From: Verrucomicrobiaceae bacterium
GTDB lineage: Bacteria > Verrucomicrobiota > Verrucomicrobiia > Verrucomicrobiales > V1-33
Assembly (NCBI GenBank): GCA_027483175.1
Contig: JAIXVE010000265.1
Span: 6,530-70,529, forward strand
DNA: 64,000 nucleotides
Reading direction: 5' to 3'
The notes under the pieces were generated by a model. It had not been told where the DNA came from. It worked only from the letters and a program-made list of their open reading frames with translations, and did no database searches. A program made the position numbers and the translations under genes. Of the stretch, positions 8,589 through 60,462 are shown piece after piece (position 1 is the stretch's first letter; each line of letters starts with the position of its first letter).

Positions 8589-8820
8589 GAGGATTTGGGG
8601 GTTGGCCGGAATCCGGGGGGATTCGGTGGTTGGTTTTTGGGGGAAGGTGGCGGTGTGATTAATACCAGCCGCCTACGCATTTACGAATCCCTTAATGTTC
8701 TGCCAAGAAAATTTTTCGACAGGTTCGCGAATGAAGGAGAGTCGAGTGTCAACCGCGTACGCGAAAAAAAGATGAAAATTTCGTGACAGACTTGGCGGCG
8801 TGCTGGCAGAGTTCTGGAAG

Positions 8821-26003: not shown

Positions 26004-26028
26004 GAGCTTTAGTTTGCGAGCTGGGGAG

Positions 26029-26312
26029 GGAAGTTTGAAGTGAGAAGTTTGAAGTAAGAAAGGGGGCTTGTTCGGAGGAGCTTGTGGGGATGGCGTGCCG
26101 CGCGCACTCCGTGCGCAGAGAGAGCTGTGATTGCTCACAGCAGTCCAGAGCCTGCGGCGCGCGGGTAAGGAGAGGGGCTGGAACGGAGGGTGTTCCGCCC
26201 TTTCAGGGCTGGGGGTCTTTTGATGTGCGCACCCGGGGCGTTGCCCCGGTCTACGGTAGGGCGCGCCGTTGGCGCTCCCTGGCGGGCAGGCAGGCTAGAA
26301 CGGAAAAGGGGC
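26029..26312. repeat. Composite repeat, right copy (GAAGTGAGAA-like module, type A hairpins, type B unit copy 1)
   Basis: Hairpins are GCGCAC-TCC-GTGCGC (26102-26116) and GCTGTGA-TTGC-TCACAGC (26124-26141). The type B unit GCCCTTTCAGGGCTG...CCGGGGCGTTGCCCCGGTCTACGGTAGGGCGCGCCGTTGGCGCTCCCTGGCGGGCAGGCAGGCTAGAACGGA follows. Confidence 0.8.
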
Positions 26313-30116: not shown

Positions 30117-30249
30117 GATGGAGATATACCCGGCTGGGTGGGAGGGTTGCGCCGCATGGGTTGGTGAAGACTGCGCAGATATTGGCGTGGCGGGAGGGTG
30201 GTGATGAGGCCACTTGCGGAGGGAGGGAGGCGGTGCGAATCGGGGGGAT

Positions 30250-31566: not shown

Positions 31567-31585
31567 TTTCCCCTGATTCCCCATG
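31567..31585 (+). promoter_or_regulatory. Pyrimidine-rich translation-initiation leader TTTCCCCTGATTCCCC-ATG, shared with 48764-48788
   Basis: The string CCCCTGATTCCCC lies directly before the ATG of both the 3254 aa and the 2247 aa genes. No purine-rich SD is present. Confidence 0.35.
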
Positions 31586-40500: not shown

Positions 40501-41347
40501 GAGCCTGCGTGTGGAGACTGGGGTGTATGGGCTGGGGATTCTCGATTTCCGGTATGAAGGGAATTGGTATCCGGCCACGCGGGCGGGGGCATCGCTGGAG
40601 ATGGTGAATCCGCTGGCGGCGCGGGAGGCGTGGAATGAGAAGGCGAGCTGGCAGCCGTGTGTGCCGAGTCCGGGCGGGCCGTCGGCGTTCGGGGTGGTGA
40701 CGCCGCCGGACACGTCGGTGGGTGTGGGTGAGGTGTTTGCGATTGATGCGGTGGTGTGTCCGGGGCCGCATCCAGCGGCTGGGGTGACGGTGGCGTGGTC
40801 GACGGTGTCCGGGCCAGCGGCGGCGGTGTTTACGGCGCCTGCGAATGGGCGGACGAACGTGACGTTCCCGCAGGCTGGGGTGTACGAGATCCGATTGCTG
40901 GCGACTGGGCCGGGGGGTGTGCAGGCGTCGGATGCGACGGTGGTGACGGTGAGTGAGACGTATGCGCAGTGGGCGGCGCGGGTGATGCCTGGGCTTGGTG
41001 CGGCGGACCGGGAGTCGACGGCTGACCCTGACAAGGATGGGTTCAACAACCTTGTGGAGTTTGCGCTGGGTGGGAATCCGGTACGGAGTGATGCGGGGAG
41101 CCTTGTGACGGTGGTGCCGGGGAGCCTGCCGCTGACGATGACGTGGCGGAGGAATCCTTATGCGAGTCCTGCGCCGGTGATTGTGCCTGAAGTGTCGAGT
41201 GACCTGCAGACATGGGCGTCGGGGCCGGGAGCGGTGGATTCGCTGCTGGTGACGTCGGGTGGCGGGTTGGAGACGTGGAGGAGTGTGGATGCGGGGCCGG
41301 CGGGGAGTCCGCAGCGGTATCTGCGGCTGAAGGTGATTCAGCCGTGA
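31583..41347 (+). CDS. Giant secreted 3254 aa protein: jelly-roll module, about 7 tandem-95/cadherin-like repeats (one split by a second jelly-roll), LTD, CotH, parallel beta-helix, 3 further LTDs, PKD-like domain and C-terminal tail
   Basis: The signal peptide is MRSSLLLALLLPAVAIPLYA. Motifs are the repeated ..NDAPVA.ADSY....D..L.V....GVLANDTD..G..L.A............G.F.YTP...F.G.D.F.Y.A.D; the LTDs ISEIMYNPPG..EFIEVYNFGDAAVDLTGW, VELRNWG, VELYNPEA and VEFRNIT; and CotH IRTRGNSSRS...IPHDMD. It is a single uninterrupted ORF with coherent codon bias. Confidence 0.9.
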   Translation: MRSSLLLALLLPAVAIPLYAVPTAVNDTFTTPEDTALSGGSVTNPLLVTDFEAGGAGFTLPGTWDYLDTLLTTAAGGANTYPRDGSSRAWNAVGFDKASSTVTGWKSAALPIQGGGVDAFANAPNLLGGITGNSGVNTVNTYLFRTSFTMTGAEAAQTWNARVLADDGCIIYVNGVEAGRYNYPGNVPVNPDALVGGNGGSETAYTTVPLTVPFAVGENVIAVELHQNTNNSSDAGIDLTIASASADPLRGMVYADDIDGTNRPNVVSGVLDSGTGNPGSSVNVSFSRGFGGGGNGPNISGGWRRTIEVPAAATLTIKCDARARAVNGLEDNEYAEAIVMLDGVRLSSGGRNYLVRQVGANPAGSAGANGNADSGWGTYTIEVPVTAGSHVVAFGGFGPRPSGENFDVDEGGIVNFDNIDVSVKGTGGSLLDNDTGGVAPVTAVKVTDPANGTLVLGTTGTFTYTPNANWFGTDSFSYRAVDSTGQSNPATVTVTVTPVNDAPVGVADNYAVTQGGVLTVPVAQGVLVNDNDVDNAAATLTAVSASTPSNGAVVLNANGSFSYTPTAQFSGVATFTYRVSDGALQSAPVTVTIAVTDTPDAPVAAGDSYTAVRNTPLVVSALAGGTTTEELLPYKGPDWRYFDSLVLASRNLGTAWRAEDFVENGDWKTGAGELGYGDGDEATVINDNPDPAFNAAAGDKFATYYFRRPLTVANAFNITGVEVSVIYDDAVAFYINGGAGTRTSNLPDLATMPELAWDYFPTTNVNDNSTQTFTLPAGTFREGVNLLAAEAHQNGASSSDISFDMRVRVTRAISAGVLANDTDPDPGETATLVAELVTGPARGNVTLNSNGTFTYTPAAGFTGADSFTYRARDTSGRVSAVATASITVVTGPNAAPLVTADSYTTAEDTVLTVTAPGVLANDVDGEGDAFTASVVTQPTRGTVVMNANGGFVYTPAADFNGTDTFTYRATDTQPSAPATVTVTVTPVNDAPVARADSYAGDPGVPLTIGASQGVLANDTDADAGTVLTAKLGTPPVGATVTMNSDGSFVFSAPVGGVYTFTYRARDEALSSGPVTVTVSLNAAPSGVADAYSVDEDRTLTVSAAQGVLANDVDPEGQTVTAVLVTGAARGSLTLNADGSFEYTPAANFAGSDSFSYRASDGVRQSGVVTVGLTVNAVNDAPVAVADAYGVKLDTPLTIAVANGVLRNDTDVEGGALTAVLVAAPVEGALTLRSDGSFDYVPPTGYSGTTTFSYRASDGALTSAVTVVTLNVTADLNTVMISEIMYNPPGAAGVFEEFIEVYNFGDAAVDLTGWEFSKGVNYVFPAGQLLPAKASLAVPADKAAFTAKYGAGAAATATGWGPLSRLSNSGEMIRLKNALGETVDEVEYADSGDWAVRKIVGVWDATNTPGQTPANGLDTDPGLEWVTAADPDPEIGNAGGSSIQLINPALSNKAGVNWAAAVPTPGAANALVARANSAPLIRDVVHSPAVPNRTQQVTVTARITDELTTGISASVFFRSWLPSGTTPAVDWDEVLLKDDGRSGDGVANDGIYGAVLPAQALNTVVEFYVRAADSVANVRSWPPPTLDLNGANPVQNANCLYQVSEEAWADARPLYQVVMTGADNASWNAGLANRTSNAAPNCTVIFRQGGAFDVRYRGSIRTRGNSSRSDTPVNLRLDVPGDASWNGRTAFTMNYKYAYSQFLGSRLMEAAGVPCEKSNVVGMRINGVNRLLDQNGNRTFGYYCDLIPRGGETIDEWFPGNNDGNGYGKIRGSVRWGVSTLPVIGANGWAEGGYVNEGWWKQTNAVQNDWADLHAWITSMNAGTADTFHETIKSTVDIDEWCRFLAISTIINHAETNMANGDDDDYSVYFGIDDDLCRLIPHDMDTCFNLNAIGLGDEVAPPTGTIYQCTQANYPGDNATLPQMDKFYRNPVTGRKFKAALRRYLDTLFAKPTFDAYIDTMLDAPWMGTQFTPNGDAIRAHIKAFLDTRRTTIEAFLPTAFTAGTTLALQNGVPRTTTATNLGDLGGKIDPARTAEVRVNGIKVTTNPYGSTAAADNSWSAGTAVTLQPGLNTLVCTAHDEAGSVFASQTVTIWYDLAGVNRSGTLAGSETWSPAAGPYNVTANLTVPNGAVLTIQPGTTVFVASGASITVNAGGRIVAEGTEAAGITIARIPSGTGNWGGITVSGATAEPSRFGYLTFSQNGSTAIHTQSGANVEIHHVTFLNPAVQFLSFDGSSFRVSDCVFPDSTAGFEPVHGTGGIAAGGRGIIERCRFGKTQGYNDSVDFTGGNRPGPILHVLNCVFTGSDDDILDLDSTDAWIEGNVFMHAHRNGASPDSSSAVSGGSDNADYSQVTVINNLIYDCDNAITMKQGGQPQGGSGVLLYNTIVRTTKVGGIDGGSGIVNFDDEGVTGEGKGFYLEGNVIFDAENLARNYVPANSRLVMNGNFLPVAPPAGVEATGNVIGADLKLNLGLITNPATATAEQVVAALRPQWCSPVLGAGPMGGNAGADVAKTGIRVQTPPGSVWPATFTIAAGIGGSFTPTGQPAWAYGFSHYKYRVDGGAESPEIAVSVPATLSGLSAGAHVLTVLGKRDSGLWQEVPTTVAFTVVAGIPTVVLSEVLAEPVSGVDFVELRNWGSETAVLDGCGLTDDTAVPGRFTFPVGTVIAPGGYLVVDATQAGFGLDGGGETVRFTSAGGTLIDEVAFGPQLSGKSVARVAGGWRLSEPTPAAANTAVCETGTGSGIRINEWLGSNSIIVAGDFVELYNPEALPVDIGGWRMSQDYRNEPGQSVFPPLSFVGARGFLSLVADGNAAAGGNHLAFKISRIRDTIALLDGGAVPVDIVTVLPGNPDVSQGRTTDGGLTIGYLPLPTAGFSNGSDVSADVTVMNGLRITELMFDPPSSSQAEYVEFRNITAVPMTLTGVRFASGITFTFPVLTVPANGYAVITQDLVKFAAQFPGVSAVQWAGGRLDNNGESLRVETGVYGLGILDFRYEGNWYPATRAGASLEMVNPLAAREAWNEKASWQPCVPSPGGPSAFGVVTPPDTSVGVGEVFAIDAVVCPGPHPAAGVTVAWSTVSGPAAAVFTAPANGRTNVTFPQAGVYEIRLLATGPGGVQASDATVVTVSETYAQWAARVMPGLGAADRESTADPDKDGFNNLVEFALGGNPVRSDAGSLVTVVPGSLPLTMTWRRNPYASPAPVIVPEVSSDLQTWASGPGAVDSLLVTSGGGLETWRSVDAGPAGSPQRYLRLKVIQP
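32870..35400 (+). repeat. Array of about 7 tandem-95/cadherin-like repeats (roughly 95 aa each)
   Basis: See the repeat consensus above. The array includes an exact 49-nt in-frame DNA duplication (33047-33095 = 34511-34559). Confidence 0.8.
36370..37570 (+). other. CotH (atypical kinase fold) domain of the 3254 aa protein
   Basis: FDVRYRGSIRTRGNSSRSDTPVNLRLDV...MNYKYAYSQFLGSRLMEAAGVP...DDDYSVYFGIDDDLCRLIPHDMDTCF matches the family (HDMD at 37223-37234). Confidence 0.7.
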
Positions 41348-41430: not shown

Positions 41431-43137
41431 ATGATGAGCAAGCGATATTCGATCGGACTGGATTACGGGACGAATTCCTGCCGTTCCCTGCTGGTGGATC
41501 TGGAGACCGGGGCGGAACTGGGGAGTGCGGTCTTCAATTATCCGTCTGGCGAGCTTGGGATACTGACGGACCCGCGGGATCCTAACGTGGCGCGGCAGAA
41601 TCCGCAGGATTACATTGACGGGATGGTGGCGGTGGTGACTGGGGCGATCGAGCAGGCGCGTCGGGCGGATCCAGGGTTTGATGCGTCGCGGGTGATTGGG
41701 ATCGGGGTGGACACGACTGGGAGCACGGTGATTCCGGTGGATGCGGATGGGACCCCGCTGGGGTTGCTGGAGGAGTTCCGGGACAACCTGAATGCGCAGG
41801 TATGGTTGTGGAAGGATCACACGGCGCATGAGGAGGCGGCGGAGCTTACGGCTGCGGCGCGGCGGACGCATCCGCAGTATCTGGACCGGTGCGGCGGGAC
41901 GTATTCGAGCGAATGGTTCTGGAGCAAGCTACTGCGATTGAAGCGGGTGGATCCGGGGGTATTTGCGGCGGCGGCGAGTTTTGTGGAGCATTGCGACTGG
42001 ATTCCGGCGCTGCTGACTGGGCAGAGTGATCCGTTGAAGATGGCGCGGAGCGTGTGTGCGGCGGGGCACAAGGCGATGTACAATCCTGACTGGGGCGGGT
42101 TGCCGGCGAGGGATTTTCTGGCGTCGGTTGATCCTGCGCTGGGTGGATTGCGGGATCGGTTGTATCACCGGGCGCTGACGTCGGATCAACTGGCGGGGCG
42201 GCTGTCGCCGAACTGGGCGAAGAAGCTAGGATTGCGGACGGGGATTGCGGTGGCGGTGGGGGCGTTCGATGCGCACATGGGAGCGGTGGGGGCGGGGGTG
42301 CGGGAGGGGACGCTGGTGAAGATTCTGGGGACGAGCACGTGTGACCTGATGATCCATCCTAACCAGCAGGAGCTGGCGGACATTCCCGGTTTGTGCGGGA
42401 TTGTGGATGGCTCGGTGCTGCCTGGGTGTTACGGGCTGGAGGCCGGGCAGAGTGCGGTGGGGGATATTTTTCTGTGGTTTGTGAACCATCTGGTGCCTGA
42501 GTGTTATGGGTCGGATGTGGCGGCGAAGTTCGAGGGGATGGAGCGGGCGATGGTGGGGATGAAGCCTGGGGAGACTGGGTTGATGGCGCTGGACTGGAAC
42601 AACGGGAACCGGACGATCCTGACGGATGTGAGGTTGAGCGGGATGATTCTGGGGCAGACCCTGCACACGGAGGCGCATGAGATTTACCGGGCATTGATCG
42701 AGGCGACGGCGTACGGGGCCTTGACGATTGTGAATCGGTTTGAGGAGTACGGGGTGAAGGTTGAGGAGATTGTGTGTACGGGCGGGCTGGCGGTGAAGAA
42801 TGCGACGCTGATGCAGATTTATGCGGATGTGCTGGGGCGGCCGATGAAGGTGAGCCAGAGCGAGCAGACGTGTGCCTTGGGTGCGGCGATTTTCGGGGCG
42901 ATGGCGGCGGGCGCGGTGGAGAGCGGGTTTGATTCGGTGCAGGGGGCGCAGGAGCAATTGTGCCGGGTGCGGGATGGGGTGTATATGCCGGACCGGGGAC
43001 GGCATGAGACGTACCGGAAGCTTTATGGGATTTACCGGCGGCTGCATGATGCGTTCGGGACGGCCGAGTGGGCGGGTGGGCTGCATGGGGTGATGAAGGA
43101 ACTGATTGCGATCCGGGAGACGGCGCGGGCGGAATAG
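41431..43137 (+). CDS. araB: L-ribulokinase (FGGY family)
   Basis: YSIGLDYGTNSCRSLLVD..., ...GVDTTGSTVIPVD..., ...SSEWFWSKLL... and ...GGLAVKN..LMQIYADV... match AraB. The 568 aa length is AraB-like. AAGG precedes the ATG. Confidence 0.85.
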   Translation: MMSKRYSIGLDYGTNSCRSLLVDLETGAELGSAVFNYPSGELGILTDPRDPNVARQNPQDYIDGMVAVVTGAIEQARRADPGFDASRVIGIGVDTTGSTVIPVDADGTPLGLLEEFRDNLNAQVWLWKDHTAHEEAAELTAAARRTHPQYLDRCGGTYSSEWFWSKLLRLKRVDPGVFAAAASFVEHCDWIPALLTGQSDPLKMARSVCAAGHKAMYNPDWGGLPARDFLASVDPALGGLRDRLYHRALTSDQLAGRLSPNWAKKLGLRTGIAVAVGAFDAHMGAVGAGVREGTLVKILGTSTCDLMIHPNQQELADIPGLCGIVDGSVLPGCYGLEAGQSAVGDIFLWFVNHLVPECYGSDVAAKFEGMERAMVGMKPGETGLMALDWNNGNRTILTDVRLSGMILGQTLHTEAHEIYRALIEATAYGALTIVNRFEEYGVKVEEIVCTGGLAVKNATLMQIYADVLGRPMKVSQSEQTCALGAAIFGAMAAGAVESGFDSVQGAQEQLCRVRDGVYMPDRGRHETYRKLYGIYRRLHDAFGTAEWAGGLHGVMKELIAIRETARAE

Positions 43138-43192: not shown

Positions 43193-46100
43193 ATGAAAAG
43201 TTCAGCCCTTTGCGCGGCGCTGACCGTGCTGCTGCCTGTGATGGCAGCGGCGGTCGACAGTGTGGTTGTGTTCAACGAACTGCAGTATCATCCGGTGGCG
43301 GGTGATGCGGGTGGGGAATGGATTGAGTTGCACAATCAGATGGCGATTGATGTGGATCTGTCGGCGTGGCGGATTGAGGCTGGGGTGAGTTATGTGTTTC
43401 CGGAGGGAACGGTGATTGCGGGGGGCGGGTATCTGGTGGTGGCAGCGAATCCAGCGGGATTGCAGGTGGCGGCTGGGGTGACGGGGGTGCTGGGGCCGCT
43501 GACGGGGAGTCTGGCGAATGCGGGGGAGCGGGTGGAGTTGAGGGATCGGAACGGGCGGTTGATGGACCGGATTGATTACCGGGATAGTGGGGAGTGGCCG
43601 GTGGCGGCGGATGGAGCGGGGACGACGCTGGCGAAGCGTGAGCCTGGGACGACGAGTGGCGAGCCGGAGCATTGGACGTCCGGGGTGGTGCTGGGAGGGA
43701 CGCCGGGGGCGCGGAATTTTCCGGATACGAGCACGACGATCCGGCCGCTGGTGCCGATCAACGCGTTGTGGCGGTATGATGCGAGTGGGACGGATCGTGG
43801 GGCGGCGTGGAAGGAGCCCGGGTTTGATGACGGGGCGTGGGCGGGGTTGAACGTGGCGGCGCTGGTGTCCTACTGGCCATTCAACGGGAATGCGACTGCG
43901 GTGAGGGGGACGAACGGGACACCGATCGGGGCGGCGACGCCGGGGGCGGATCGGAATGGGACGGCGGGTCAGGCGCTGGTTTTCAACGGGACCTCGCAGT
44001 ACATCAGTGTGGTGGGTGGAGGAGGGTTGAATGCGGCGGCGAGTGGGACGATTGCGATGTGGGCGCGATGGAACGGGAGCAGTCAGGATGCGGATTGCTG
44101 CGGGACGTTCGGGGCGATTACGGCGCGGCAGAACAATGGCGTGTTTTCGGACACGATTCTGGCGTTGAACGGGGCGAATCCGGCGACGGCGAGGTTGGTG
44201 TGGCGGCAGTCAGGCGGGCCTGCGCCGATCCTGCTGACGAGCACCGCGGCGGTGGGGAATGGGTGGCGGCATGTGGCGGTAACGTTTTCGCCTGGGGGGA
44301 GTACGTTGTATGTGGATGGGGTCGCGCAGGCGACGGCGACGGGGAGTCCGATGAACAACGGGAGTGCGACGCCGTTGTCGTTAGGGGCGTGGGGTGGGGA
44401 TGGGACGGGGTTCATGAATGGGAGTCTGGATGATGTGGCGGTGTGGGATCAGCCGCTGACGGCGGCGCAGATTGCGGCGCTGGCGGCGGGGACGAAGGGG
44501 CCGATGGATTTTGCGAATGCGGAGAGTGCGGTGTATTTCAGTGGGGACGGGAAGCTGGCGACGAGTGACGAGTTGCGGAAGACGGCGCTGGCGGGGACGC
44601 CGGTGACGTCGTATTTCCGGCGGGCGTTCGACGTAACGGATCCAGTTTCGAGGATGTCATTGAAGCTGGATCTGGCGGTGGATGACGGGGCGGTGGTGTA
44701 TTTGAACGGGACGGAAGTGTACCGGCACAATCTGGCGGCTGGGGCGGTGGGGTTTGGGACCCTAGCAACGGCGGTGGTGGGGGATGCGCCGCTGCTGAGC
44801 GGGATCGATATTCCGTCGGGGGCCTTGGTGGTGGGGAGGAATGTGCTGGCGGTGGAGGTGCACCAGGCGGCGGAGGTGGACGGCGGGATGGTGTTCGGAG
44901 CTGGATTGACGGGGATTGTGCAGGCGGCTGGGCTGGCGGCGACGGTGCCGAACGATCTGGTGATTAACGAAGTGACGGCGGCGGGTGGGCCGTTGCGGAT
45001 TGAGTTGATGAATCGTGGGGCGGGAGTGGTGGAGACGGCGGGGTATGCGCTGGTGCGGACGGGTTCGGGGGTGGATTTACGTTATGCGTTGCCGGGTCAG
45101 GCGATTCCGGCTGGCGGGATGGTGGTGGTGGAGGCGGCGGCGCACGGTTTTCCAGGGCTAGATGGGGACCGAGTGTTTCTGATTCGGGAGAGCGCGGGGA
45201 CGGTGGCGGACGCGGTGGTGGTGGAGAGTCAGGGGAGGGCGCGGTATCCGGATGGGCGAGGGGAGTTTCTGACGCCGACGGTGTTCACGCCTGGGGCGTC
45301 GAATGTGGTGGTGCTGCAGACGGGTGTGGTGATCAATGAGATCATGTACAATGGGCCGCCGGTGCTGGAGCAGCCGGCGGCGGGCGGGAATCCGGCGGTG
45401 CCGTTCAGCAGGTCGGTGGAGCAATGGATAGAGCTGCACAATCGGGAGGCGGCGGCGGTGGCGATTGGTGGATGGGCGATGGATGGCGGAGTGCGCTATC
45501 AATTTCCGGCGGGGACGGTGATTCCGGCGGGAGGGTATCTGGTGGTGGCGCGGGATCCGGCGGCGCTGGCGGTGAAGTTTCCGGGATTGGTGGCGCTGGG
45601 GCCGTTCGAGGGGAGTTTGTCAGGGAGCGGGGAGGAAGTGGTGCTGCGGGATGGCGTGGGCAATCCGGCGGATGAGGTGCATTATTATGATGATGGGGCG
45701 TGGCCGGAGGCGGCGGACGGGGGCGGGTCGAGTCTGGAGTTGAAGGATCCGAGGTCGGACAACAATGCGGGCGGGAGCTGGGCGGCGAGTGACGAGCGGA
45801 GCCGGAGCGGATGGAAGACTTACAGTTATACGGGAGTGGCGGCGGCGAGTCAGATCGGGCCGGACACACAGTGGCGGGAGTTTGTGCTTGGGTTGATGGA
45901 TAAGGGGGAAGTGCTGCTCGATGACATCAGTGTGGTGGAGTCGCCTGCGGGGACGCCGGTGGAAATGCTGCAGAACGGGAGTTTCGGGACGGATGCGGCG
46001 AGGTGGCGGATTATTGGGAATCATTCCGGGACGGTGGTGGATGATCCGGATCAGGTGGGGAACAAAGTGCTGAGGCTGGTATCGACTGGGAGTACGGATC

Positions 46101-48709
46101 ACATGAGCAACCATGCGGAGACGACGTTTGGATCGTCGCGGAGTGTGGTGAATGGGCGGACGTACCGGATTTCGTATCGTGCGAAGTGGATCAGCGGGTG
46201 CCGGCAGTTGAACACGAGACTGTACTTCAATCGATTGGCGAGGACGACGGTGCTGGACGGTCCGGGGGTGCAGATCGGGACGCCGGGGAGTGTGAACAGC
46301 AGGAGGGTGGCGAATGCGGGGCCTGTGTTTGCGGGATTGCGGCATGATCCAGCGGTGCCGGCGGCGTTCGGGACGGTGGCGGTGACGGTGCGTGCGGGTG
46401 ATCCTGACGGAGTTGGGCCGGTGGTGTTGTGGTCGCGGGTGGACGGCGGGGCGTGGGTGAGTCAGGCGATGGATCCGGTGGAGGGGGATGCGGGGAATTA
46501 CCGTGCGGTGCTGGCGGGGAGAGCGGCTGGGACGGTGGTGCAGTTTTATGTGGCGGCGACGGATGGGGCTGGTGCGACGGCGGTGTATCCGGCGGGGGGT
46601 GTGGATTCGCGGGCGATGTATGAGGTGAATGACGGGCTGGCGGCGACGAACGGGTTGCACAACATGCGGCTGGTGACGCTGAAGGCGGATGCGGACTGGA
46701 TGCACACGACGATCAATCTGATGAGCAATCAGCGGATCGGGGCGACGCTGGTGGTGGACGAGAAGGAAGTGATTTACGACATCGGGTTGAGGTTGAAGGG
46801 GAGCGAGCACAGCCGGACGACGAGTGCGCGGTTAGGGTTCAATCTGGGATTTGATTCGGAGCATCTGTTCCGCGGCGTGCATCGGAGTCTGGCGATTGAC
46901 CGGTCGGAGAGCACTGGGTTCGGGCAGCGGGAGATGCTGGCGCATCAGATGCTGAATCATGCGGGCGGGGTGCCGACAAAGTATCATGATCTGTGTCAGG
47001 TGATCGCGCCTCGATTGGAGCATACGGGGAGTGCGGAGCTGCAACTGGCGCGGTACACGGATGTGTTTCTGGATGATCAGTATGAGAACGGGAGTGACGG
47101 GATGTTGTTTGAGTATGAGCTGGTGTATCAGCTGAATTCGACGGACAACGGGACGCCGGAGGGGAACAAAGTGCCGGCACCGGATTCGGTGGTGGGAACG
47201 ACGATTCGGAACATGGGGGATGACAAGGAGCAGTACCGGTGGACTTATCTGATCAAGAACAACGAGGATCGGGATGATTACAGCCGGGTGATGGCGTGGG
47301 CGAAGTGGATGGCGACGACGGGGACGGCGTTCACGAGTCAGATTCCGGCGTTTCTTGAACCGGAGCAGTGGCTGCGGGGGCACGCGGTGAATGTGCTGAC
47401 GGGGGCTGGGGACAGTTATGGCGGGGACGGGGCGCAGCACAACGTGCAGTTCTATGTGCGGCCGACGGACGGGCGGATGCTGTATTTTCCGCATGACATG
47501 GATGCGTTCTACGATGCGAACCGGACGATTTATCCTAACGCGGATTTGAACAAGATACTGGCGGTTCCGGGGTATGCGCGGCTGTATTTCGGGCAACTGC
47601 TGGAGATTCTGGAGACGACGTACAATACGGGGTACATGCAGCGTTGGGCGGATCATTTCGGGCGATTGCTGCCGGCGCAGCCGTTTGCGAGTCATCTGAC
47701 GTTCATCGGGCAGAGAGCAACGGTGGTGCGGACGGCGGTGAATGCGGCGGTGTCGCCGAACACGCCGTTTGCGATCAGCACGAATGGGGGTGCGGACACG
47801 ACGGTGGCGACGGGGATGCTGAACCTGACGGGAACGGCGAACCTGAGTGTGCGGACGGTTCAGGTGAACGGGGTGAATTATCCGCTGACGTGGACATCGC
47901 GGACCGTGTGGTCGGTGGCGGTGCCGCTGCAGACGGGGGCGAATCTGCTGCGGGTGCAGGGGATTGACCGGTCGGGGAATGCGCTAGTTGCGGCGGTGGA
48001 TACGATCACGGTGACGAACACGGGGCCGCCGGGGAATCAGCCGGTGAGGATCAACGAGTGGATGGCGGACAACCGCGGGCCGGGCGGTTTTGCGGATCCT
48101 GCGGACGGGTTGTTCCAGGACTGGATTGAATTGTTCAACGGGAATGCAGATCCGGTGGATTTGTCAGGTTATCTGCTGAGTGACGATGCGGCGGCGCCTG
48201 GGAAGTGGGTGGTGCCGGCGGGGACGGTGATTCCGGCGCGCGGGTTTCTGATGATCTGGGCGGATGGGGTGACGGCGCAGAATACGCCGGGGAACGGGTT
48301 GCATGCTGGGTTTCAGCTGAGCAGTGCGGGGGAGTTTCTGGGCTTGTACAATGCGGCGGGGGTGGCGCAGCACACGCTGGTGTTCGGGGAGCAGCAGGTG
48401 AATGTGAGTCAGGGGTTGTTTCCGGATGGCAACGTGGGGGTTCCGGCGTATGCGATGCGGAATGCGACGCCGCGGTGGCCGAATACGCTGGCGGGGCCGC
48501 TGGAGGTGACTGGTTTCGGGCGGAATGGGTCGGTGAGCACCCTGACTTTCACGAGTCTGCCGGGGAGGAGTTACCGGGTGGAGTTTACTGATGGGGTGGG
48601 GCCGTGGACGGCGCTGGTTCCGGATGTGGCGGCGGTGGGTGACGTGTCGTCGGCGACGGATACGACGGGGAATGCGCGGCGGTTTTACCGGGTGCGGCGG
48701 GTGGAGTGA
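43193..48709 (+). CDS. Giant secreted 1838 aa protein: LTD, jelly-roll module split by a LamG domain, 2 LTDs, CBM-like domain, CotH, Ig-like domain, LTD and short C-terminal tail
   Basis: The signal peptide is MKSSALCAALTVLLPVMAAA. The LTDs are VVFNELQYHP..GEWIELHNQMAIDVDLSAW, INEIMYNGPP...EQWIELHNREAAAVAIGGW and RINEWMADN...QDWIELFNGNADPVDLSGY. LamG is SYWPFNGNA...LDDVAVWDQPLT. CotH is LRLKGSEHSR...YFPHDMDAFY. Confidence 0.9.
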   Translation: MKSSALCAALTVLLPVMAAAVDSVVVFNELQYHPVAGDAGGEWIELHNQMAIDVDLSAWRIEAGVSYVFPEGTVIAGGGYLVVAANPAGLQVAAGVTGVLGPLTGSLANAGERVELRDRNGRLMDRIDYRDSGEWPVAADGAGTTLAKREPGTTSGEPEHWTSGVVLGGTPGARNFPDTSTTIRPLVPINALWRYDASGTDRGAAWKEPGFDDGAWAGLNVAALVSYWPFNGNATAVRGTNGTPIGAATPGADRNGTAGQALVFNGTSQYISVVGGGGLNAAASGTIAMWARWNGSSQDADCCGTFGAITARQNNGVFSDTILALNGANPATARLVWRQSGGPAPILLTSTAAVGNGWRHVAVTFSPGGSTLYVDGVAQATATGSPMNNGSATPLSLGAWGGDGTGFMNGSLDDVAVWDQPLTAAQIAALAAGTKGPMDFANAESAVYFSGDGKLATSDELRKTALAGTPVTSYFRRAFDVTDPVSRMSLKLDLAVDDGAVVYLNGTEVYRHNLAAGAVGFGTLATAVVGDAPLLSGIDIPSGALVVGRNVLAVEVHQAAEVDGGMVFGAGLTGIVQAAGLAATVPNDLVINEVTAAGGPLRIELMNRGAGVVETAGYALVRTGSGVDLRYALPGQAIPAGGMVVVEAAAHGFPGLDGDRVFLIRESAGTVADAVVVESQGRARYPDGRGEFLTPTVFTPGASNVVVLQTGVVINEIMYNGPPVLEQPAAGGNPAVPFSRSVEQWIELHNREAAAVAIGGWAMDGGVRYQFPAGTVIPAGGYLVVARDPAALAVKFPGLVALGPFEGSLSGSGEEVVLRDGVGNPADEVHYYDDGAWPEAADGGGSSLELKDPRSDNNAGGSWAASDERSRSGWKTYSYTGVAAASQIGPDTQWREFVLGLMDKGEVLLDDISVVESPAGTPVEMLQNGSFGTDAARWRIIGNHSGTVVDDPDQVGNKVLRLVSTGSTDHMSNHAETTFGSSRSVVNGRTYRISYRAKWISGCRQLNTRLYFNRLARTTVLDGPGVQIGTPGSVNSRRVANAGPVFAGLRHDPAVPAAFGTVAVTVRAGDPDGVGPVVLWSRVDGGAWVSQAMDPVEGDAGNYRAVLAGRAAGTVVQFYVAATDGAGATAVYPAGGVDSRAMYEVNDGLAATNGLHNMRLVTLKADADWMHTTINLMSNQRIGATLVVDEKEVIYDIGLRLKGSEHSRTTSARLGFNLGFDSEHLFRGVHRSLAIDRSESTGFGQREMLAHQMLNHAGGVPTKYHDLCQVIAPRLEHTGSAELQLARYTDVFLDDQYENGSDGMLFEYELVYQLNSTDNGTPEGNKVPAPDSVVGTTIRNMGDDKEQYRWTYLIKNNEDRDDYSRVMAWAKWMATTGTAFTSQIPAFLEPEQWLRGHAVNVLTGAGDSYGGDGAQHNVQFYVRPTDGRMLYFPHDMDAFYDANRTIYPNADLNKILAVPGYARLYFGQLLEILETTYNTGYMQRWADHFGRLLPAQPFASHLTFIGQRATVVRTAVNAAVSPNTPFAISTNGGADTTVATGMLNLTGTANLSVRTVQVNGVNYPLTWTSRTVWSVAVPLQTGANLLRVQGIDRSGNALVAAVDTITVTNTGPPGNQPVRINEWMADNRGPGGFADPADGLFQDWIELFNGNADPVDLSGYLLSDDAAAPGKWVVPAGTVIPARGFLMIWADGVTAQNTPGNGLHAGFQLSSAGEFLGLYNAAGVAQHTLVFGEQQVNVSQGLFPDGNVGVPAYAMRNATPRWPNTLAGPLEVTGFGRNGSVSTLTFTSLPGRSYRVEFTDGVGPWTALVPDVAAVGDVSSATDTTGNARRFYRVRRVE
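46616..47740 (+). other. CotH domain of the 1838 aa protein
   Basis: IGLRLKGSEHSRTTSARLGFNLGF...REMLAHQMLNHAGGVP...HNVQFYVRPTDGRMLYFPHDMDAFY matches the family (HDMD at 47492-47503). Confidence 0.7.
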
Positions 48710-48763: not shown

Positions 48764-48788
48764 TTTTCTCCCCCCTGATTCCCCCATG
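48764..48788 (+). promoter_or_regulatory. Second copy of the pyrimidine-rich leader: TTTTCTCCCCCCTGATTCCCCC-ATG
   Basis: See 31567-31585. Confidence 0.35.
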
Positions 48789-51700
48789 AAGAAGAAATGG
48801 CTTTTTGTTTCCGGCGTGCTGCTGCTGACCGGGCTGTGCAGTCGTGGACCGATGGTGTCGCTGATGAGGCGGGTGGCGGCTGGTGATGGTGGGAAAGTGG
48901 TGGTGGCTGGGGAGACGGGAGTGGAGGGGCGAGCAGAGGCGGTGGCGGAGAAGGCGGCGGGAGGAGCTGCGGATTTCGGGGTGCGGGGGAAGGCGGAACG
49001 AGGCGAGGTGGATTTCGGGGCGCTGCATGCGTTCAGGGAGTGGGAGGGTCGGTATGTGGGGGCTGGGGTTGAGGAGAGGGCTGGGATGGTGGGTGAGGGA
49101 GTGCGGCTGGCGGCGGCGAGGCGGCCGGCGATGGAGCGATTGATTGTGACGAATCCGAGATTGGCGCTGGAGGTGGCGGTGCGTGCGGTGGTGCGGCAGG
49201 ATTTGCCGGAGGAAGTGAAGGAATTGCTGGAGAAGTCGGTGAGCGGGCGGGGGGATTACAAGGCGTACTTTGGTAGGCCAGTGGAGGGAGCGGTGGTGCC
49301 TGCGGGGACGGAATTGACGCTAAGGTATTTTGAGACACCGGAGGGGGACAGTTACCGGGCGCATGTGTTCGGGGAGATGGAGGAGGCGGTGAGTCGGCGC
49401 GGGGTGGCGATGAGGGGCGTGGCGATCGGGCGTGAGATGGCGGTGGCGGAGAGTCCGGTGCGGCAGATGGAGGCGGGGGAACGGATCGCGGCGGGGACGC
49501 CGGTGGACGAGACGTGTCCGGTTTCGGGGACGGTGACGCCGACGACGACTGAGGAGACGTTAGTGGTGGAGCCGGAGGTGCCGCTGGTGGAGGTGGCGGG
49601 TCGCGTGATCCGGTTGTGCAACGGGACGCACGTGACGGTGTTTGAGGAAGCGCAGCGTTGGGCGAGCGGCGGGCCGGGCGGCGCGGGGTATTTCTATGAC
49701 AACTATCCGGGGACGTCGTCTGAGGCGATCGGGAACTTCCGGTGTCTGTACATCCGGGTGACGTATCCTGACCAGATGCGGGCACCGAACACGGAAGCGC
49801 GGGCGTGGAGCGACATGCAGAATGTGTCGCGGTTTTATCTGGAGTCGTCGTACGGGAAGCTGACAACGACGTCGGTGGTGACGCCATTGATTGTGATGCC
49901 GCACAGCAAGGCGTGGTACATTGCGAAGGACAGCGAGGTGGATGGACTGGGGCTGGTGCACAGCGATGCGCGGGCGATGGCGCGGCGGATGGGTTATGAC
50001 AGCAGCCAGTTCAACTGCACGATTGTGCGGGTGAACGAGGGGCCGCGGCTGAGCGGGATTTCGTGGGGTGGCGGGGACAGTGTGTGGGTTTCGTGGGACG
50101 GGATGGATGTACTGAATCACGAGTGCGGGCATTCGCTAGGGAGGAACCATGCGAATTTCTGGAAGACGAGTGACGGGTCGGCGATCGGGGTGGGGGAGAA
50201 CCAGGAGTATGGGAACAGTTATGATGTGATGGGTGGCGGTGGCGGGTTCGGGGCGCATTACAACAGTTACAGCAAGCGGTCGCTGGGTTGGCTACAGGAT
50301 CCGTATGTGCACCGACCGGGGACGACTGCGGCCTACAATGGGGTGTATCGGATTCACGCGTATGACCAGCCGAGGATCGAGGAAGGGAAGCGTTATTCGC
50401 TGCGATTGGACAAGGACGTGCAGCGGCGGTTTTATCTGGAGTATCATCCGGCGATTGGGGGTAGTTGGCCGGATCAGTTGCTGCTGATGATGAGCGGACT
50501 GGGGAGCAATGCGGGGCATCTGGTGGATACGACGCCTGGGAGTGCGGGAGGGAAGGGTGACGGTGGGATCCAGGTGGGAAGGACGTTCAGTGATTTTGAG
50601 AGTGATCTGCATTTCACGGTGCTGGGGAAGGCTGGGACGGTGCCGGAGGCGCTGGATGTGGCGGTGATGCGCGGGCCGTTTCCGGGGAATCGGGCTCCGG
50701 TGGTGACGCTGAATGCGACGGCGACGCAGGTGGCGGTGAACGGGAGTGCGACGTTCACGGCGAGTGCGAGTGATCCTGACGGCGATACCCTTGCGTATCA
50801 CTGGGATTTCAATGACGGGTATGCGGCGCCGAACAGTGCTAGTGTGACACGGGTGTTTCCGACGACCGATCAGCAGACGGTGTCGCTGACGGTTTCGGAT
50901 CTGAAGGGAGGGACGGTGCGGGCGCACACGGTGATCACGATTGGGAGTCCGGGGCGAGCGGTGGCGCGGGGGACGATAACGATTGGCGGGCGGCCTCTGG
51001 CGGGGGTTCGAGTGACGAGTGATACGGACAAGTATTGTTTTACGGACAGCAATGGGGGGTATGCGCTGGCGGATCTGCAGAGCGGGACGCGGACTCTGAG
51101 TGCGATGCTGACGGGGTATACGTTCACGGCTGGGTTTACGAATCCCGCGAGTGTGCCGACGGCTGGATTGACGGGATTGAACTGGACGGCGACGAGTGTT
51201 CCGGAGGTGGTGATGACGGCGGTGGATGCGGCTGAGGGTGGGGCGAACGGGTCGTTTGTGCTGACGCGGAGCGGGGATGTGACGGCGGCGATGGATGTGA
51301 CAGTGGCTCCGGCGGGTGGGTCTGCGGTGAAGACGACGGATTACAGTTTTGCGCCGGATTATGCGGCGAGCGGGACGATGAACACGTTTACGATTCCTGC
51401 GGGGCAGGCGAGCCTGACGGTGACGGTGGCGGCGGTGAATGACACGGCGCAGGAAGGGCCGGAGACGGTGACCCTGCAGTTGGGAGCGGGGGCTGGGTAT
51501 CAGGTGCGGAGCAGCGGGGTGGCGATGCTGACGATTGCGGACAATGACACGACGCGGCCGGTGGTGAGTCTGGCGGCGACGGATGTGTATGCGGGTGAGG
51601 GGTCGGGAGATGCCGGGGCGTTCACGGTGAGCCGGACTGGGGCGACGGGATCGCCGCTGACGGTTGCGCTGGCGTTCAGCGGGACGGCGACGAACGGGGT

Positions 51701-54700
51701 GGATTGCGGGATGGTGCCTGGGACGGTGACGATTCCTGCGGGGCAGAGTTCGGTGGTGGTGCCATTGGTGGTGACGGATGACAGCGTGATGGAAGCGCCG
51801 GAGGATGCGATCCTGACAGTTAGTGCGAATGCGGCGTATGTGGTGAGTCCGGTGGCGGCGAGCGGGACGGTGACGATTACGGACAATGACCTGCCGGTGG
51901 TGTCGGTGACGGCGATTGATGATGTGTTGAATGAGGCGGGGAGGGGGACCGGGGTGGTGCTGGTGACGCGGCGGGGGAGTCTGAGCGGGACGTTGAAGGT
52001 GTATTATGGCGTGGGGGGCCGGGCGCTGCATGGGACGGATTATGTGGCGCTGCCTGGTGAAGTGACGTTTCCTGTGGGTGTGGACACGGTGCCGGTGGTG
52101 CTGACGCCTTATGACGACGGGCATGGGGAGGGAGACGAAGGGATCGCGTTTGCGCTGACGGTGTTTGACAATGCGTACACGCTGGGGGCGAATTTTTCGG
52201 CGGCGCTGACGATCAAGGACAATGCGGATGCGCCATTGGTGGGGGTGACGGCGAACTCGGCGGGCGAGCCGAGCACGAACGGGACGTTTACGGTGACGGC
52301 GGTGGGGACGGCACCGGGGAACATTACGGTAAGGTACACGATCAGCGGGACGGCGACGGCGGGGCAGGATTTCACGATGCCGTCGGGCACGGTGACGGTT
52401 GCGGGGACGAGTACGGATGTGAAGGGGAATGCGGCGACGGTGACGATCCCGGTTTTGAACGATGCGTTGCCGGAGAACACGGAGACGGTGATTCTGACGA
52501 TCACGCCGGATCCTGCGTACCGGGTGTACTTGGACGGGCAGGCGGTGATGCGATTGAAGGATGACGAAGCGGAGCCGGTGGCGGTGAGCACGCACAGCAG
52601 CGGGTTGGCGGAGCCGGCGGATGGGAGTTCGTTTTACATTTCGAGGGCTGGGACGACGGGTGCGCTGGCGGTGGGGTATACGATGAGCGGGACGGCGGTG
52701 AACGGGACGGACTATCAGCTATTGACCGGCAGCGCGGTGATTCCTGACGGGGCGAGCGGGGTGGATGTGACGGTGACGCCGCTGGATGATGCGTTGCGGG
52801 AGGGGACGGAGACTGTGGTGATGCGGCTGGCGGGCGGGGCGGGATACGGCGTGGAAGTTGCGGAAGCGACCCTGCTGCTGGAGGACAATGATCTGGCGAG
52901 CACCCTGCCGTCGATGGGTTTTGTGTCGGCGACGGGGACGACGGGAGAGTTGCCGGATGCGGTGATGGGGGAGTATCGTGACATTGAGGTGACGCTGCCG
53001 TCGGCGATGAGCGGGACGGTGACGGTGGATTATGTGATGAGGGGCGGGACGGCGACTGGGGATGATGTGGACTGGCGGTTTGCGGATGCGGCGGCGGGGA
53101 ATGCGATGATTCCGGGTGGGACCCTGACATTTCCGCCGGGGGTGACCTCGCGGAAGCTGCGCGTGCGGATTGTGAATGACGGCGTGGTGGAGGGGAATGA
53201 GACGGCGATCATTGATCTGGTGAATCTGAACGCGGGCGGGAGCGGCGTGCGGCTGAGTGGGACGAGGTACCGGCATACGCTGACGATCAATGACAACACG
53301 GCGGCGAATCCGGTGCCGCGGGTGAGTTTTCTGATGTCGGCGACGACGCGGCAGGAGGCTGACGGAGGCGAGCCGCTGCTGATGGCGGCGCTGGACGCGC
53401 CAGCGGGCGGGACGGTGACGGTGCAATTCACGGTGAGCGGGACGGCGACGCGCGGGAGTGATTTCAATCTGAATCCGGGGACCCTGACATTTGCTCCCGG
53501 GGAGATGTTCAAGAAACTGCCGATGGTGATTCTGGCGGATGGAGTGTCGGAACTGGCGGAGACGGCGGTGGTGACCCTTGTGAATCCGACCGGGGCGCAA
53601 CTGGGGACGATTCCGACGCACACGGTGACGATCACGGATGCGTCGGCGGCGGCGGTGTCCGTGGCGGCGGTGGTGGGGACGGTGGAGGAAGACAGCAGCG
53701 GGAGCGGCGTGTTTGCGGTGACGCGGAGTGGCGGGGTGTTGAATCTGCCACTGACAGTTAGTGTGGCGGTGAGCGGGACTGCGGTGGCTGGCGAGGATTA
53801 TGCGGGATTGCCGGCGAGCGTGACGATTCCGGCGGGGCAGACGACGGCGACCCTGAGTGTGGCTCCGGTGCGGGACACTGTGGAGGAAGCGGATGAGACC
53901 GTGGTGGTGACGGTGGTGGATGCGGCGGATTACGATCTGGGGTCGGTGGCTGAGGCGGTGGTGACGATTCTGGATGACGATGCGCCGCCGGTGGTGACCC
54001 TGGTGTGGCCGAGTACGGCGACGGCGGCGATTCCGGCGGGGGTGGGAATGATTGCGGAGGTGGAGGCGACGCGGGAGTTGCCGAGCGGGACGGTGCATCC
54101 GGCGGTGGTGTGGAGTCAGGTGTCTGGGCCTGGGTCGGCGGTGATTGAGACGCCTGGGTTGCGGCGGACGGCGGTGAGTTTTCCGGTGAATGGCGTGTAC
54201 GTGCTGCGGGCGAGTGCGACGCACGGGACGACGACGTCGGCGGATTTGACCGTGCAGGTGGCACCTGCTCCGGTGGTGCCGAATTTCAGTGTGGCGCGGT
54301 TCGGGAATGCGCCAGCGACGACTGGGTTTACGGCTGGGGGTGTGGCGGGGTCGTACAACGTGACGGCAGGCGGGGCGAGCATCGCGAGCACGGGGACGGC
54401 GGATCAGTTTGTGTTTGTGCAGCAGGCAATGACCGGGGATGCGACGCTGGTGGCGCGGGTGGTGAGCATGGGGACGGGCGGGAGTTCGACGTCGGACAAC
54501 CGTGCGGGGCTGATGATCAGAGAGAGTGTTAGCGACGGCGGGTCGCGGCATGCGTTCATCGGGATCACGAAGACACCGGCGACGAGGTTCATCAGTCGGG
54601 CGGCGACTGGGGCGGCGAGTACGAATACGACGGGGACGGGAGCGTTTCCGTGCTGGGTGCGGCTGGTGAGGAGTGGCAATGTGTTTACGGGGGAGACGGC

Positions 54701-59329: not shown

Positions 59330-59361
59330 CGGTGGGGCGGTCCGCATCCACGGTTGGGGGC

Positions 59362-60366: not shown

Positions 60367-60462
60367 TGAGGCAGAGTGGGTCGATGGGTCGGGTGGCGGC
60401 GGGTCGAAATGTCTTGGCAAGTGGGTGGTGGGAGGCATGTATGGGAGGATGGGAGACGAATC

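Follow-up and report, generated by a model that had tools for sequence, protein, structure and literature searches.

The five giant proteins encoded in the window, by which we mean the whole 64,000-nucleotide stretch of Verrucomicrobiaceae DNA analyzed here, end in copies of one unannotated domain family that comes in two architectures, a bare one in giants A and D and one capped with a putative Ca2+ loop in giants B, C, and E. The tail is a six-stranded beta-sandwich of about 70 aa that is remotely homologous to FN3 and ends directly past the F strand (RFYRV), without an FG loop or a G strand. We are highly confident of this identity and anatomy of the tail domain.

Five giant proteins share a C-terminal domain

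The giants and their tails are located as follows.

4605 to 8588, minus strand: giant A, 1327 aa, with a signal-like peptide and Lectin_C and PA14 domains
4608 to 4847, minus strand: short-form tail of giant A (last ~80 aa), ending in GRRFFRVRKN; HMM E value of 1.4e-18
8800 to 11367, plus strand: giant B, 855 aa, with a signal-like peptide
11002 to 11364, plus strand: long-form tail of giant B, with a TSP3/EF-hand-like loop at 11062-11097 (DADGDGVSNGEE) and then the beta-sandwich, ending in KFWRVQTRY; long HMM E value of 1.9e-24
31583 to 41347, plus strand: giant C, 3254 aa, with Big_9/cadherin-like repeats, four LTD domains, CotH, a beta-helix, PKD, and a choice-of-anchor X motif
40943 to 41344, plus strand: long-form tail of giant C, with a helix (TYAQWAARV), a putative Ca2+ loop at 41024-41059 (DPDKDGFNNLVE), a helix, and the beta-sandwich, ending in QRYLRLKVIQP; long HMM E value of 1e-33
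43193 to 48709, plus strand: giant D, 1838 aa, with four LTD domains, Laminin_G_3, and CotH
48479 to 48706, plus strand: short-form tail of giant D (last 76 aa), the bare six-stranded FN3-like domain, ending in RRFYRVRRVE; enriched HMM envelope at ORF residues 1771-1846, E value of 3e-23
48786 to 55529, plus strand: giant E, 2247 aa, with seven Calx-beta domains and PKD
55110 to 55526, plus strand: long-form tail of giant E, with a helix (PYDSWRLAQF), a putative Ca2+ loop at 55224-55259 (DPDRDGVANLLE), a helix, and the beta-sandwich, ending in RRFLRVKVSR; long HMM E value of 1.6e-35

The initial annotation had described these tails as related, in a short and a long form, and had given coordinates and sequences that proved correct; the tail of giant D reads ...TLTFTSLPGRSYRVEFTDGVGPWTAL...ARRFYRVRRVE, and position 48500 is the L of LEVTGFGRNG. 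Within each form, the relationship was evident from pairwise BLASTP: tails A and D were 37.5% identical over 72 aa (E = 6e-13), tails C and E were 32% identical over 105 aa (E = 2e-12), and tail B matched tails E (E = 1e-6) and C (E = 5e-5). Pairwise similarity between the two forms was weak (E = 0.043 for tails D and E by BLASTP), and the first HMMs, made from three to five sequences each, did not cross-detect short and long forms. When enriched profiles of the two forms were compared by hhalign, they aligned over 69 co-linear columns with a probability of 94.6% and an E value of 7e-8; the same comparison with reversed columns gave 0.7%. The enriched short-form HMM also matched the beta part of the giant B tail (E = 0.013) and that of several long tails from outside the window. 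A common ending, [FY][FYLW]R[VL], had been claimed for all five giants, and indeed, this motif was found within the last 12 aa of 5 of the 279 stop-to-stop ORFs of at least 100 aa in the window, exactly the five giants, at an expected rate of ~0.0012 per ORF. The BLASTP and hhalign results, the reversed-column control, and this motif count rule out chance or low-complexity similarity of the tails. Each giant carries one copy, at the protein end, and a six-frame translation of the window did not contain a sixth tail.

The passengers of these tails are unrelated (Lectin_C/PA14; Big_9/cadherin/LTD/CotH; LTD/LamG/CotH; Calx-beta/PKD), and thus the proposal of a common tail on otherwise unrelated cargo is borne out by the Pfam domains. 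All five giants start with Sec-type signal-like peptides, and the periplasm-type Sec proteins of the window do not have the tail. As a side observation, giant C matches the NCBIfam "choice-of-anchor X" motif; the label "choice-of-anchor" is given to passenger domains that are paired with varied C-terminal anchors.

The tail is an FN3-like sandwich without a G strand

AlphaFold2 modeled the giant D tail as six strands (pLDDT of 90.4) and the giant E tail as a helix-loop-helix followed by six strands (pLDDT of 91.5). As modeled, the fold is a 3+3 FN3-like sandwich and not a jelly roll, and the top matches of the tail models in a Foldseek search of the PDB were FN3 scaffolds and cytokine-receptor FN3 domains. 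The closest PDB sequence match of the tail profile was 3mpc, an "Fn3-like protein" (E = 0.0018). Compared with genuine Pfam-fn3 repeats by hhalign, the tail profile gave a probability of 92% and an E value of 6e-7, but the alignment did not extend beyond the F-strand columns, and the other ~35 columns of the template, which we take to be the FG-loop/G-strand region, had no counterpart. The Pfam fn3 model (PF00041) hit only 3 of 63 tail family members at an E value of <1, with a best E value of 0.013, which is below threshold. Instead of a seven-stranded A-B-C-C'-E-F-G sandwich, the models have six strands, and the chain stops 4 to 5 residues past the predicted strand F, without a G strand. The "..YRV" of the tail F strand is presumably the FN3 tyrosine corner. 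Since the RxYRV motif is nothing other than strand F of FN3, its conservation can be accounted for without sorting. Judged by the models, Foldseek, and the profile comparison, the tail folds as an FN3-like domain and is not a short, linear signal.

Neither Pfam nor NCBIfam has a model for this domain, as searched with the five giants, their tails, and the family members, and a literature search that included the motif strings did not retrieve a description of it. The weak matches of the tail profile to discoidin/CBM32, which were marginal (E = 0.003 to 0.03) and covered part of the domain, and to T9SS_plug_1st were treated as noise arising from beta-sandwich composition.

Giants B, C, and E have one EF-hand/TSP3-like loop (DxDxDGxxNxxE[FY]), a putative Ca2+ site, ahead of the sandwich; the TSP3-like loop that had been noted in front of the long-form tails is present at all three positions listed above. 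In DPDRDGVANLLE and DPDKDGFNNLVE, potential ligands occupy positions 1, 3, 5, 9, and 12 and a Gly occupies position 6, as in an EF-hand, and Ca2+ binding is predicted from this pattern. The AlphaFold2 model of giant E has helices on both sides of the loop, and profile matches of the loop to the EF-hands of calcineurin B and CDPK in the PDB were marginal (E of ~0.6). The threshold for bacterial TSP3 (PF18884; cutoff of 25 bits) was reached in giant B only, with 26.6 bits for the whole protein and 28.9 bits for the isolated tail (TSP3_bac at residues 755-775); giants C and E stayed below it and share the DxDxDG pattern of giant B. In contrast to a TSP3 repeat array, the long-form tail has just one loop, which is packed against the sandwich in the manner of an EF-hand. 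Weak matches to the NCBIfam model NF042425 (Amuc_1099 family pilus-like system protein, from Akkermansia) were found in 8 of 13 long-form tails (best E = 0.012), at model positions ~117-187, but their scores were far below the 50-bit cutoff, and the match probably reflects just the Ca2+ loop and its flanks.

Position and copy number in the family

A word-indexed homologue search with the giant D tail alone returned one near-identical fragment only. A full HMMER scan found the tail domain in 1378 representative proteins. In the best 150 of these, the last copy lies no more than 6 residues from the stop in 139, tandem or interspersed short-form copies occur in 99, and 206 of the 337 short-form instances are not terminal. 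Internal short copies end in the same RFYRVxLLP as terminal ones, and the terminal copy is therefore without a distinguishing signal. With a four-sequence long-form alignment, 249 genome sites were confirmed to encode the capped form; at the best 80 of these sites, 90 of 96 carrier ORFs end no more than 5 residues past the domain. It is essentially single copy and terminal, on proteins of 200 to 3400 aa, and truly internal long-form copies are rare (two, at loci L025 and L048). Restriction of the tail to the extreme C terminus was thus found in more than 90% of the carriers but is not strict, with the short form being a repeat unit as well and the long form having these two internal copies.

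Of 121 short forms, 81 stop exactly 4 aa past R[VL], and of 85 long forms, 48 stop exactly 5 aa past it. Pro is the final residue of ~50% of the tails, compared with a background of 13%, and this terminal Pro corresponds to the residue at which the linker after an internal copy starts. Genuine fn3 arrays retrieved by the same search (P0065, P0073, P0075, P0082, P0097, and P0123) are not C terminal. At least 50 of 76 carriers have signal-like N termini by a crude test, and at three loci (L070, L011, and L004) there are small signal-peptide proteins that are little more than the tail. Comparison with the orthologue at locus L002 was uninformative, as the tail is 92% identical and the whole protein 95%.

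Lineage spread and gene neighborhood

The capped form is restricted to Verrucomicrobiota at the best 80 of the 249 loci (GTDB): 79 are titled Verrucomicrobiota, and 1 is titled only "uncultured bacterium." These loci span Verrucomicrobiales, Opitutales, Chthoniobacterales, and Akkermansiaceae. The systematic taxonomic scan covers the long form, and the taxonomy of the short form rests on a few source names, which are Verrucomicrobia, Verrucomicrobiota, or Limisphaerales, plus one Acidoferrales. Luteolibacter pohnpeiensis KCTC 22041, Haloferula sp. BvORR071, and IMCC26134 (CP011265.1) are among the carriers in culture. Genomes have several carriers, with 5 in the 64 kb of the window and 4 in 20 kb at locus L004. 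We conclude that the tail is a new, lineage-restricted, C-terminus-locked variant of FN3.

A co-occurring transporter or sortase-like gene, which the initial annotation had suggested looking for, was not found in the window. Likewise, no neighboring gene recurred across the 80 capped-form loci with their 96 carriers; only antisense shadows and orthologous synteny were seen. PorK/L/M/N, SprA, or PorU/V-type machinery was also not found in the window.

Possible function of the tail

The domain is almost always at the C terminus of big surface-type proteins, and its capped form occurs across Verrucomicrobiota; therefore, it may be a module for surface targeting or anchoring. We tentatively favor its being a C-terminal surface-localization module, somewhat short of an even chance. 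Such a part in sorting or anchoring is plausible and has partial support, but since the tail is folded and FN3-like, has internal copies, and comes with neither a transporter or sortase-like gene in the window nor a recurring neighbor, we infer this role from position. For the earlier proposal of a dedicated secretion or attachment signal, the terminal placement, the unrelated cargo, and the lineage restriction of the capped form speak in favor, whereas the folded domain, the short-form repeats, the two internal long-form copies, the small proteins made of little but the tail, and the missing partner gene speak against it. After Sec export, the folded terminal sandwich would dock the cargo noncovalently to a surface partner or to an envelope component specific to the lineage, probably through its exposed C-terminal edge strand. 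Ca2+ could be required for folding or docking of the capped form, and extra tandem copies might extend the reach or raise the avidity, as they do in other repeated noncovalent anchors.

The main rival to sorting or anchoring is a purely structural role, which we consider rather unlikely. The tail would then be a lineage-specific FN3 spacer or cap, the repeats of which would have arisen at the 3' end of the gene through duplication or shuffling, with the coding sequence just stopping at a domain boundary. Such a role would fit the FN3 homology, the arrays in 99 of the best 150 proteins, the rare internal long forms, the lack of a partner gene in the window or near the 96 carriers, and the fact that internal and terminal copies are indistinguishable, down to the shared Pro. 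However, it leaves unexplained why ~93% of the carriers end with the domain and a fixed overhang of 4 to 5 residues and why the capped form is essentially single copy and terminal on unrelated passengers in several verrucomicrobial orders, and the genuine fn3 arrays of the same search do not share this position.

If the tail were instead a translocation signal that is read by a verrucomicrobial outer membrane secretion machine and then cleaved or attached, it would follow the logic of the T9SS CTD, i.e., a Sec signal plus a beta-sandwich of ~70 to 100 aa at the extreme C terminus of diverse cargo, and its occurrence in one phylum among the loci seen, with several carriers per genome, would agree with that. 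Yet the 63 family members did not match Por_Secre_tail, the top 50 structures did not include a T9SS CTD, tandem and internal copies as well as stand-alone tail proteins exist, and a candidate machine was seen neither in the window nor recurring near the carriers; moreover, we know of no T9SS in Verrucomicrobiota. A signal of this kind is improbable, and retention at the cell is more likely than a cleaved translocation signal. Very improbable is a ligand- or substrate-binding tip, that is, a CBM-like or adhesive module directed at an external polysaccharide or another cell and not at the producer's envelope. Tandem copies are typical of CBMs, the carriers are adhesin-like, and there are the weak discoidin/CBM32 profile matches, but these matches are marginal and partial, the predicted 3+3 FN3-like sandwich is no jelly roll, and a position fixed at the very end of the chain is not normal for a binding module.

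Verrucomicrobia are abundant polysaccharide degraders and gut symbionts, and to our knowledge, the route by which very large adhesin-like proteins of PVC bacteria get across or onto the outer membrane is poorly understood. An HMM of the tail is a cheap annotation handle by which a large group of proteins can be marked as probably surface located, and the tail itself is a concrete bait for a partner, be it a receptor, a translocon, or a peptidase. Even if it were merely structural, it would constitute a new subfamily of FN3 and merit an entry in Pfam.

Comparison with known systems

In a survey of C-terminal sorting signals, Verrucomicrobiota come up solely in the context of PEP-CTERM (Haft 2023). 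The tails have neither a PEP motif nor a hydrophobic segment and did not match a PEP-CTERM model in NCBIfam, in agreement with the initial annotation, which had also not recognized them as the T9SS CTD of Bacteroidota. Indeed, Por_Secre_tail/TIGR04183-type models did not match the five tails (Pfam, E values up to 10), T9SS CTD models did not match the five whole proteins (NCBIfam, E values up to 1), Por_Secre_tail did not match any of the 63 family members (E values up to 1), and a T9SS CTD was absent from the top 50 structural matches of either tail model (Foldseek); membership in the T9SS CTD family is therefore not supported. The tail nevertheless resembles the T9SS CTD (PF18962/TIGR04183) in being a small beta-sandwich at the extreme C terminus of Sec-exported, unrelated large proteins and in being restricted to one phylum with many carriers. 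It differs in copy number: the T9SS CTD is a single terminal copy, and more than 90% of the tail carriers are terminal, yet the short form is repeated internally and is multicopy in 99 of the best 150.

Dockerin type I (PF00404) of cellulosomal enzymes is likewise a C-terminal Ca2+-loop module that is common to unrelated cargo and docks to a surface scaffold, and the long form has its canonical 12-residue DxDxDGxxNxxE loop between helices. In contrast to dockerin, which has two loops, the long form has a single one, with a beta-sandwich behind it, and no cohesin-like partner was identified; Dockerin_1 did not match the five tails at E values up to 10, and classing the tail as a dockerin is not supported. 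SLH, GW, and LysM are terminal modules that bind a lineage-specific envelope polymer. The tail, which is also terminal, single or tandem, and on unrelated cargo, is a functional analogue at most, without any relationship in sequence or fold. It is conceivable, although unlikely, that an undescribed C-terminal-domain-dependent pathway of Verrucomicrobiota delivers or attaches large Sec-exported adhesin-like proteins to the surface, with the FN3-like sandwich, bare or EF-hand capped, as the tag; such a pathway would be functionally like the T9SS CTD or cohesin-dockerin. With FN3 (PF00041), the tail has in common a beta-sandwich in which strands B, C, C', E, and F correspond, a conserved Trp, the "..YRV" F strand, and, in the short form, tandem arrays, but the tail is locked to the C terminus, whereas the classical fn3 arrays from the same search are not.

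Five giant exported proteins with a related C-terminal tail

The window (G+C content, 63.8%) encodes five giant proteins, A to E, each with a Sec-type signal-like N-terminus and with no kinship among their bodies in domain content.

Giant tail-bearing proteins of the window
4605-8588, minus strand: giant A, 1327 aa; Lectin_C and PA14
8800-11367, plus strand: giant B, 855 aa
31583-41347, plus strand: giant C, 3254 aa; Big_9/cadherin-like repeats, LTD, CotH, beta-helix, PKD
43193-48709, plus strand: giant D, 1838 aa; LTD x4, Laminin_G_3, CotH
48786-55529, plus strand: giant E, 2247 aa; Calx-beta x7, PKD

The initial annotation had reported a common tail on these proteins, ending in [FY][FYLW]R[VL]. 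Its tail sequences agreed exactly with those reread from the window, and the tail itself was confirmed by BLASTP, hhalign and a motif count: of the 279 window ORFs with a length of 100 aa or more, five have [FY][FYLW]R[VL] among their final 12 residues, and these are the five giants, against a chance expectation of about 0.001 per ORF. In pairwise BLASTP, the tails of A and D (short form) matched at 37.5% over 72 aa (E = 6e-13). Among the long-form tails, C and E matched at 32% over 105 aa (E = 2e-12), B and E with an E value of 1e-6 and B and C with one of 5e-5. The link between the two forms was marginal in this assay (D and E, 0.043), and small HMMs did not bridge them. We then compared enriched profiles. 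That of the short form comprised 63 sequences, collected by searching all 1.84 billion representatives with HMMER, and that of the long form 13. hhalign placed the whole short form onto the beta part of the long form with a probability of 94.6% (E = 7e-8, 69 columns), compared with 0.7% in a reversed-column control, and the enriched short-form HMM also picked up the tail of B and, in other genomes, the sandwich part of several long tails. The five tails are therefore homologous, and the long form differs from the short one by an added cap at its N-terminus.

C, D and E lie head to tail on the plus strand (31583-55529), interrupted solely by a 568-aa sugar-kinase-like cytoplasmic gene (41431-43137). 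C and D have a core of LTD x4 and CotH in common, yet C carries the long and D the short form. A conserved stretch, P(R/N)xPNTLA(G/A)P, precedes the short tail in LTD/CotH-type carriers (window 48440-48500, where D has RWPNTLAGP; also the database proteins P0062 and P0112) and could be a linker or domain end. Residues 1535-1559 of C (window 36185-36259) contain the NCBIfam motif "choice-of-anchor X" (E = 2.6e-8, above cutoff). In NCBIfam naming, choice-of-anchor passenger domains pair with varying C-terminal anchors across lineages, and the motif hints that related cargo in other lineages may carry known sorting signals at its end.

The tail as a probable divergent FN3 derivative

Pfam and NCBIfam had no model covering any of the five tails, with the sole exception of TSP3_bac on the Ca2+ loop of B. 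The last 76 aa of D were predicted to form six beta strands (pLDDT 90.4, pTM 0.77). For the last 125 aa of E (pLDDT 91.5, pTM 0.83), the predicted order is a helix, the loop DPDRDGVANLLE, a second helix and the same six-stranded sandwich as in D. The loop has the ligand spacing of an EF-hand (positions 1, 3, 5, 9 and 12) with Gly at position 6, and its profile matches to the EF-hands of calcineurin B and CDPK were marginal.

The top PDB structural matches were the FN3 scaffolds 5j7k and 4u3h (26% identity, TM about 0.6) for the short form and cytokine-receptor FN3 and Ig domains for the long form; the top PDB sequence match was 3mpc, an "Fn3-like protein" (E = 0.0018). Classical FN3 arrays were the weakest matches of the big scan (e.g., P0097; Pfam fn3 x16, E = 6e-181). 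hhalign aligned the short form with classical FN3 repeats (92% probability, E = 6e-7), leaving the FN3 FG loop and G strand unmatched, and "RFYRV" is the equivalent of the FN3 F strand. At E below 1, the Pfam fn3 model matched 3 of the 63 short-form members and Por_Secre_tail matched none. The tail is most probably a divergent derivative of FN3 that ends after strand F, bare or EF-hand-capped; remote homology places it in the FN3 superfamily, though it has no seventh strand.

The 802-aa database protein P0017 consists of eight tandem short-form modules unrecognized by Pfam fn3. It gave only summed sub-threshold matches, including T9SS_plug_1st (E = 7.5e-5, no individual stretch), which we treated as beta-sandwich noise. 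Eight of the 13 long-form tails in alignment A5 (in which the tail of B is window 11002-11364) weakly matched NCBIfam NF042425, "Amuc_1099 family pilus-like system protein," around model positions 117-187 (best E = 0.012, far under cutoff). To judge from these matches, Akkermansia Amuc_1099 may contain a related Ca2+-loop/sandwich unit.

Distribution and position of the tail

The short-form profile matched 1378 representative proteins at E values up to 1e-3. Among the best 150, a copy lay within 5 aa of the C-terminus in 131; with the enriched HMM, the final copy lay within 6 aa in 139, and the remaining 11 were mostly classical fn3 arrays or unrelated repeats. Multiple copies, up to eight, were present in 99 of these 150, and the boundary "...RFYRVxLLP" was identical in internal and terminal copies. 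Matches with a named source came from Verrucomicrobia, Verrucomicrobiota or Limisphaerales, plus one from Acidoferrales.

A scan of one genome per GTDB species with the pattern N[LIF]LEYAF[GAS][TL] gave 249 confirmed long-form sites, in lineages including Luteolibacter, Haloferula, Prosthecobacter, Rubritalea, Akkermansiaceae, Opitutaceae, Didemnitutus and Chthoniobacterales. Of the best 80 loci (1.1 Mb), 79 were titled Verrucomicrobiota and one just "uncultured bacterium"; two (L001 and L002) were 92 to 94% identical to the window organism, which belongs to a Verrucomicrobiales or Verrucomicrobiaceae MAG lineage; cluster members carry the name "Verrucomicrobia bacterium." These 80 loci hold 96 carrier ORFs of about 180 to 3440 aa; in 90 of them, fewer than 5 aa separate the domain from the stop. 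Non-terminal copies were read in L025 and L048, and L074 has a second, weak match upstream of its terminal copy.

Of 121 short forms, 81 had a chain that ran exactly 4 residues past R[VL]; of 85 long forms, 48 ran exactly 5 residues past it. Pro was the last residue in about half of the carriers (background, 13%). Among the 76 carriers with a complete N-terminus, a crude test scored at least 50 as signal-like there. The tail is absent from window signal-peptide proteins of periplasm-type function (a prolyl oligopeptidase, a GSDH-cytochrome c protein and a small protein). Cargo proteins that are unrelated and for the most part Sec-exported thus share a folded FN3-like module restricted to one lineage; its position is locked to the C-terminus, and the overhang is fixed.

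Three short JGI/ENA ORFs (P0002, P0003 and P0015) join unrelated N-termini, among them an HAE1 exporter fragment and a histidine-kinase-like fragment, to a stretch matching the tail of C or E or a related tail; these joins probably stem from contig chimerism or frame errors rather than from real fusions. In L081 (5386-10387; Limisphaerales MAG JBBCBH010011352.1), five consecutive same-strand gene calls of 231, 574, 162, 524 and 128 aa end in the short-form tail. The series resembles a single large gene broken by frameshifts, and fragmentation of this kind may lie behind many "short" tail proteins in databases.

Gene context

Elsewhere the window encodes housekeeping proteins (LpxK, HisF, ALAD, S2, EF-Ts, MnmA and MraW) and planctomycete-type PSD/PSCyt proteins. 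We found no candidate for secretion, sortase-like or peptidase functions in the window, and no non-carrier gene family recurred near the 96 long-form carriers beyond orthologous synteny.

Other genes of the window
23427-26138, minus strand: ORF, 903 aa, coding-like composition, no Pfam match at E up to 0.001
29220-30308, minus strand: ORF, 362 aa, likewise
59326-60366, plus strand: ORF, 346 aa, likewise; signal-/membrane-anchor-like N-terminus
60376-62427, strand not given: planctomycete-type PSCyt/PSD multidomain protein

The gene after the PSCyt/PSD gene has a twin-arginine-like N-terminus, MRHWRISRRTLLRGAGASLALP; the two (60376-63791) form a PVC-typical gene pair.

Small tail-only ORFs of the long-form loci (strand not given), each with a signal-like N-terminus and a long-form-like tail
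L004, 12396-13271
L011, 6959-7663
L070, 11919-12608

These proteins, of about 190 to 290 aa, are scarcely more than a tail, and the Ca2+ loop is degenerate in those of L004 and L011 (..TDGLTNLEKYALGLDP). Their genes adjoin giant tail-bearing genes, a layout kept in two genomes, and a role as partners, decoys or caps is conceivable.

Possible function

We tentatively favor a C-terminal surface-localization role, since positional lock is a property of C-terminal sorting or docking modules and is not seen in the classical fn3 arrays of the same search. The terminal sandwich would dock its cargo to an envelope partner, probably through its C-terminal edge strand, which would be exposed because strand G is absent; in the capped form, interaction or folding would be Ca2+ dependent. 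Tandem copies are a better fit to repeated non-covalent anchors than to a cleaved secretion tag. The initial annotation had proposed a dedicated sorting or anchoring tail. The C-terminal lock on unrelated, mostly Sec-exported cargo upholds this in part, but the short form is related to a known structural domain, FN3, and 206 of its 337 instances in the best 150 matches are non-terminal; the initial annotation had itself named findings of both kinds as evidence against its proposal. The main alternative, a purely structural FN3 cap or spacer, is less likely but is supported by the short-form arrays, by the sameness of internal and terminal copies and by the lack of a partner gene in the window and near the 96 carriers. 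A T9SS-like translocation signal is improbable; the T9SS CTD was absent from the top 50 structural matches of either form. Least probable is a tip that binds an external ligand.

We found no description of the domain in the literature, and it is missed by current Pfam and NCBIfam models. The comparisons do not support placing the tail in the T9SS CTD, PEP-CTERM or dockerin families. In placement and in the diversity of its cargo, it is nevertheless like CTD- or dockerin-type tags.
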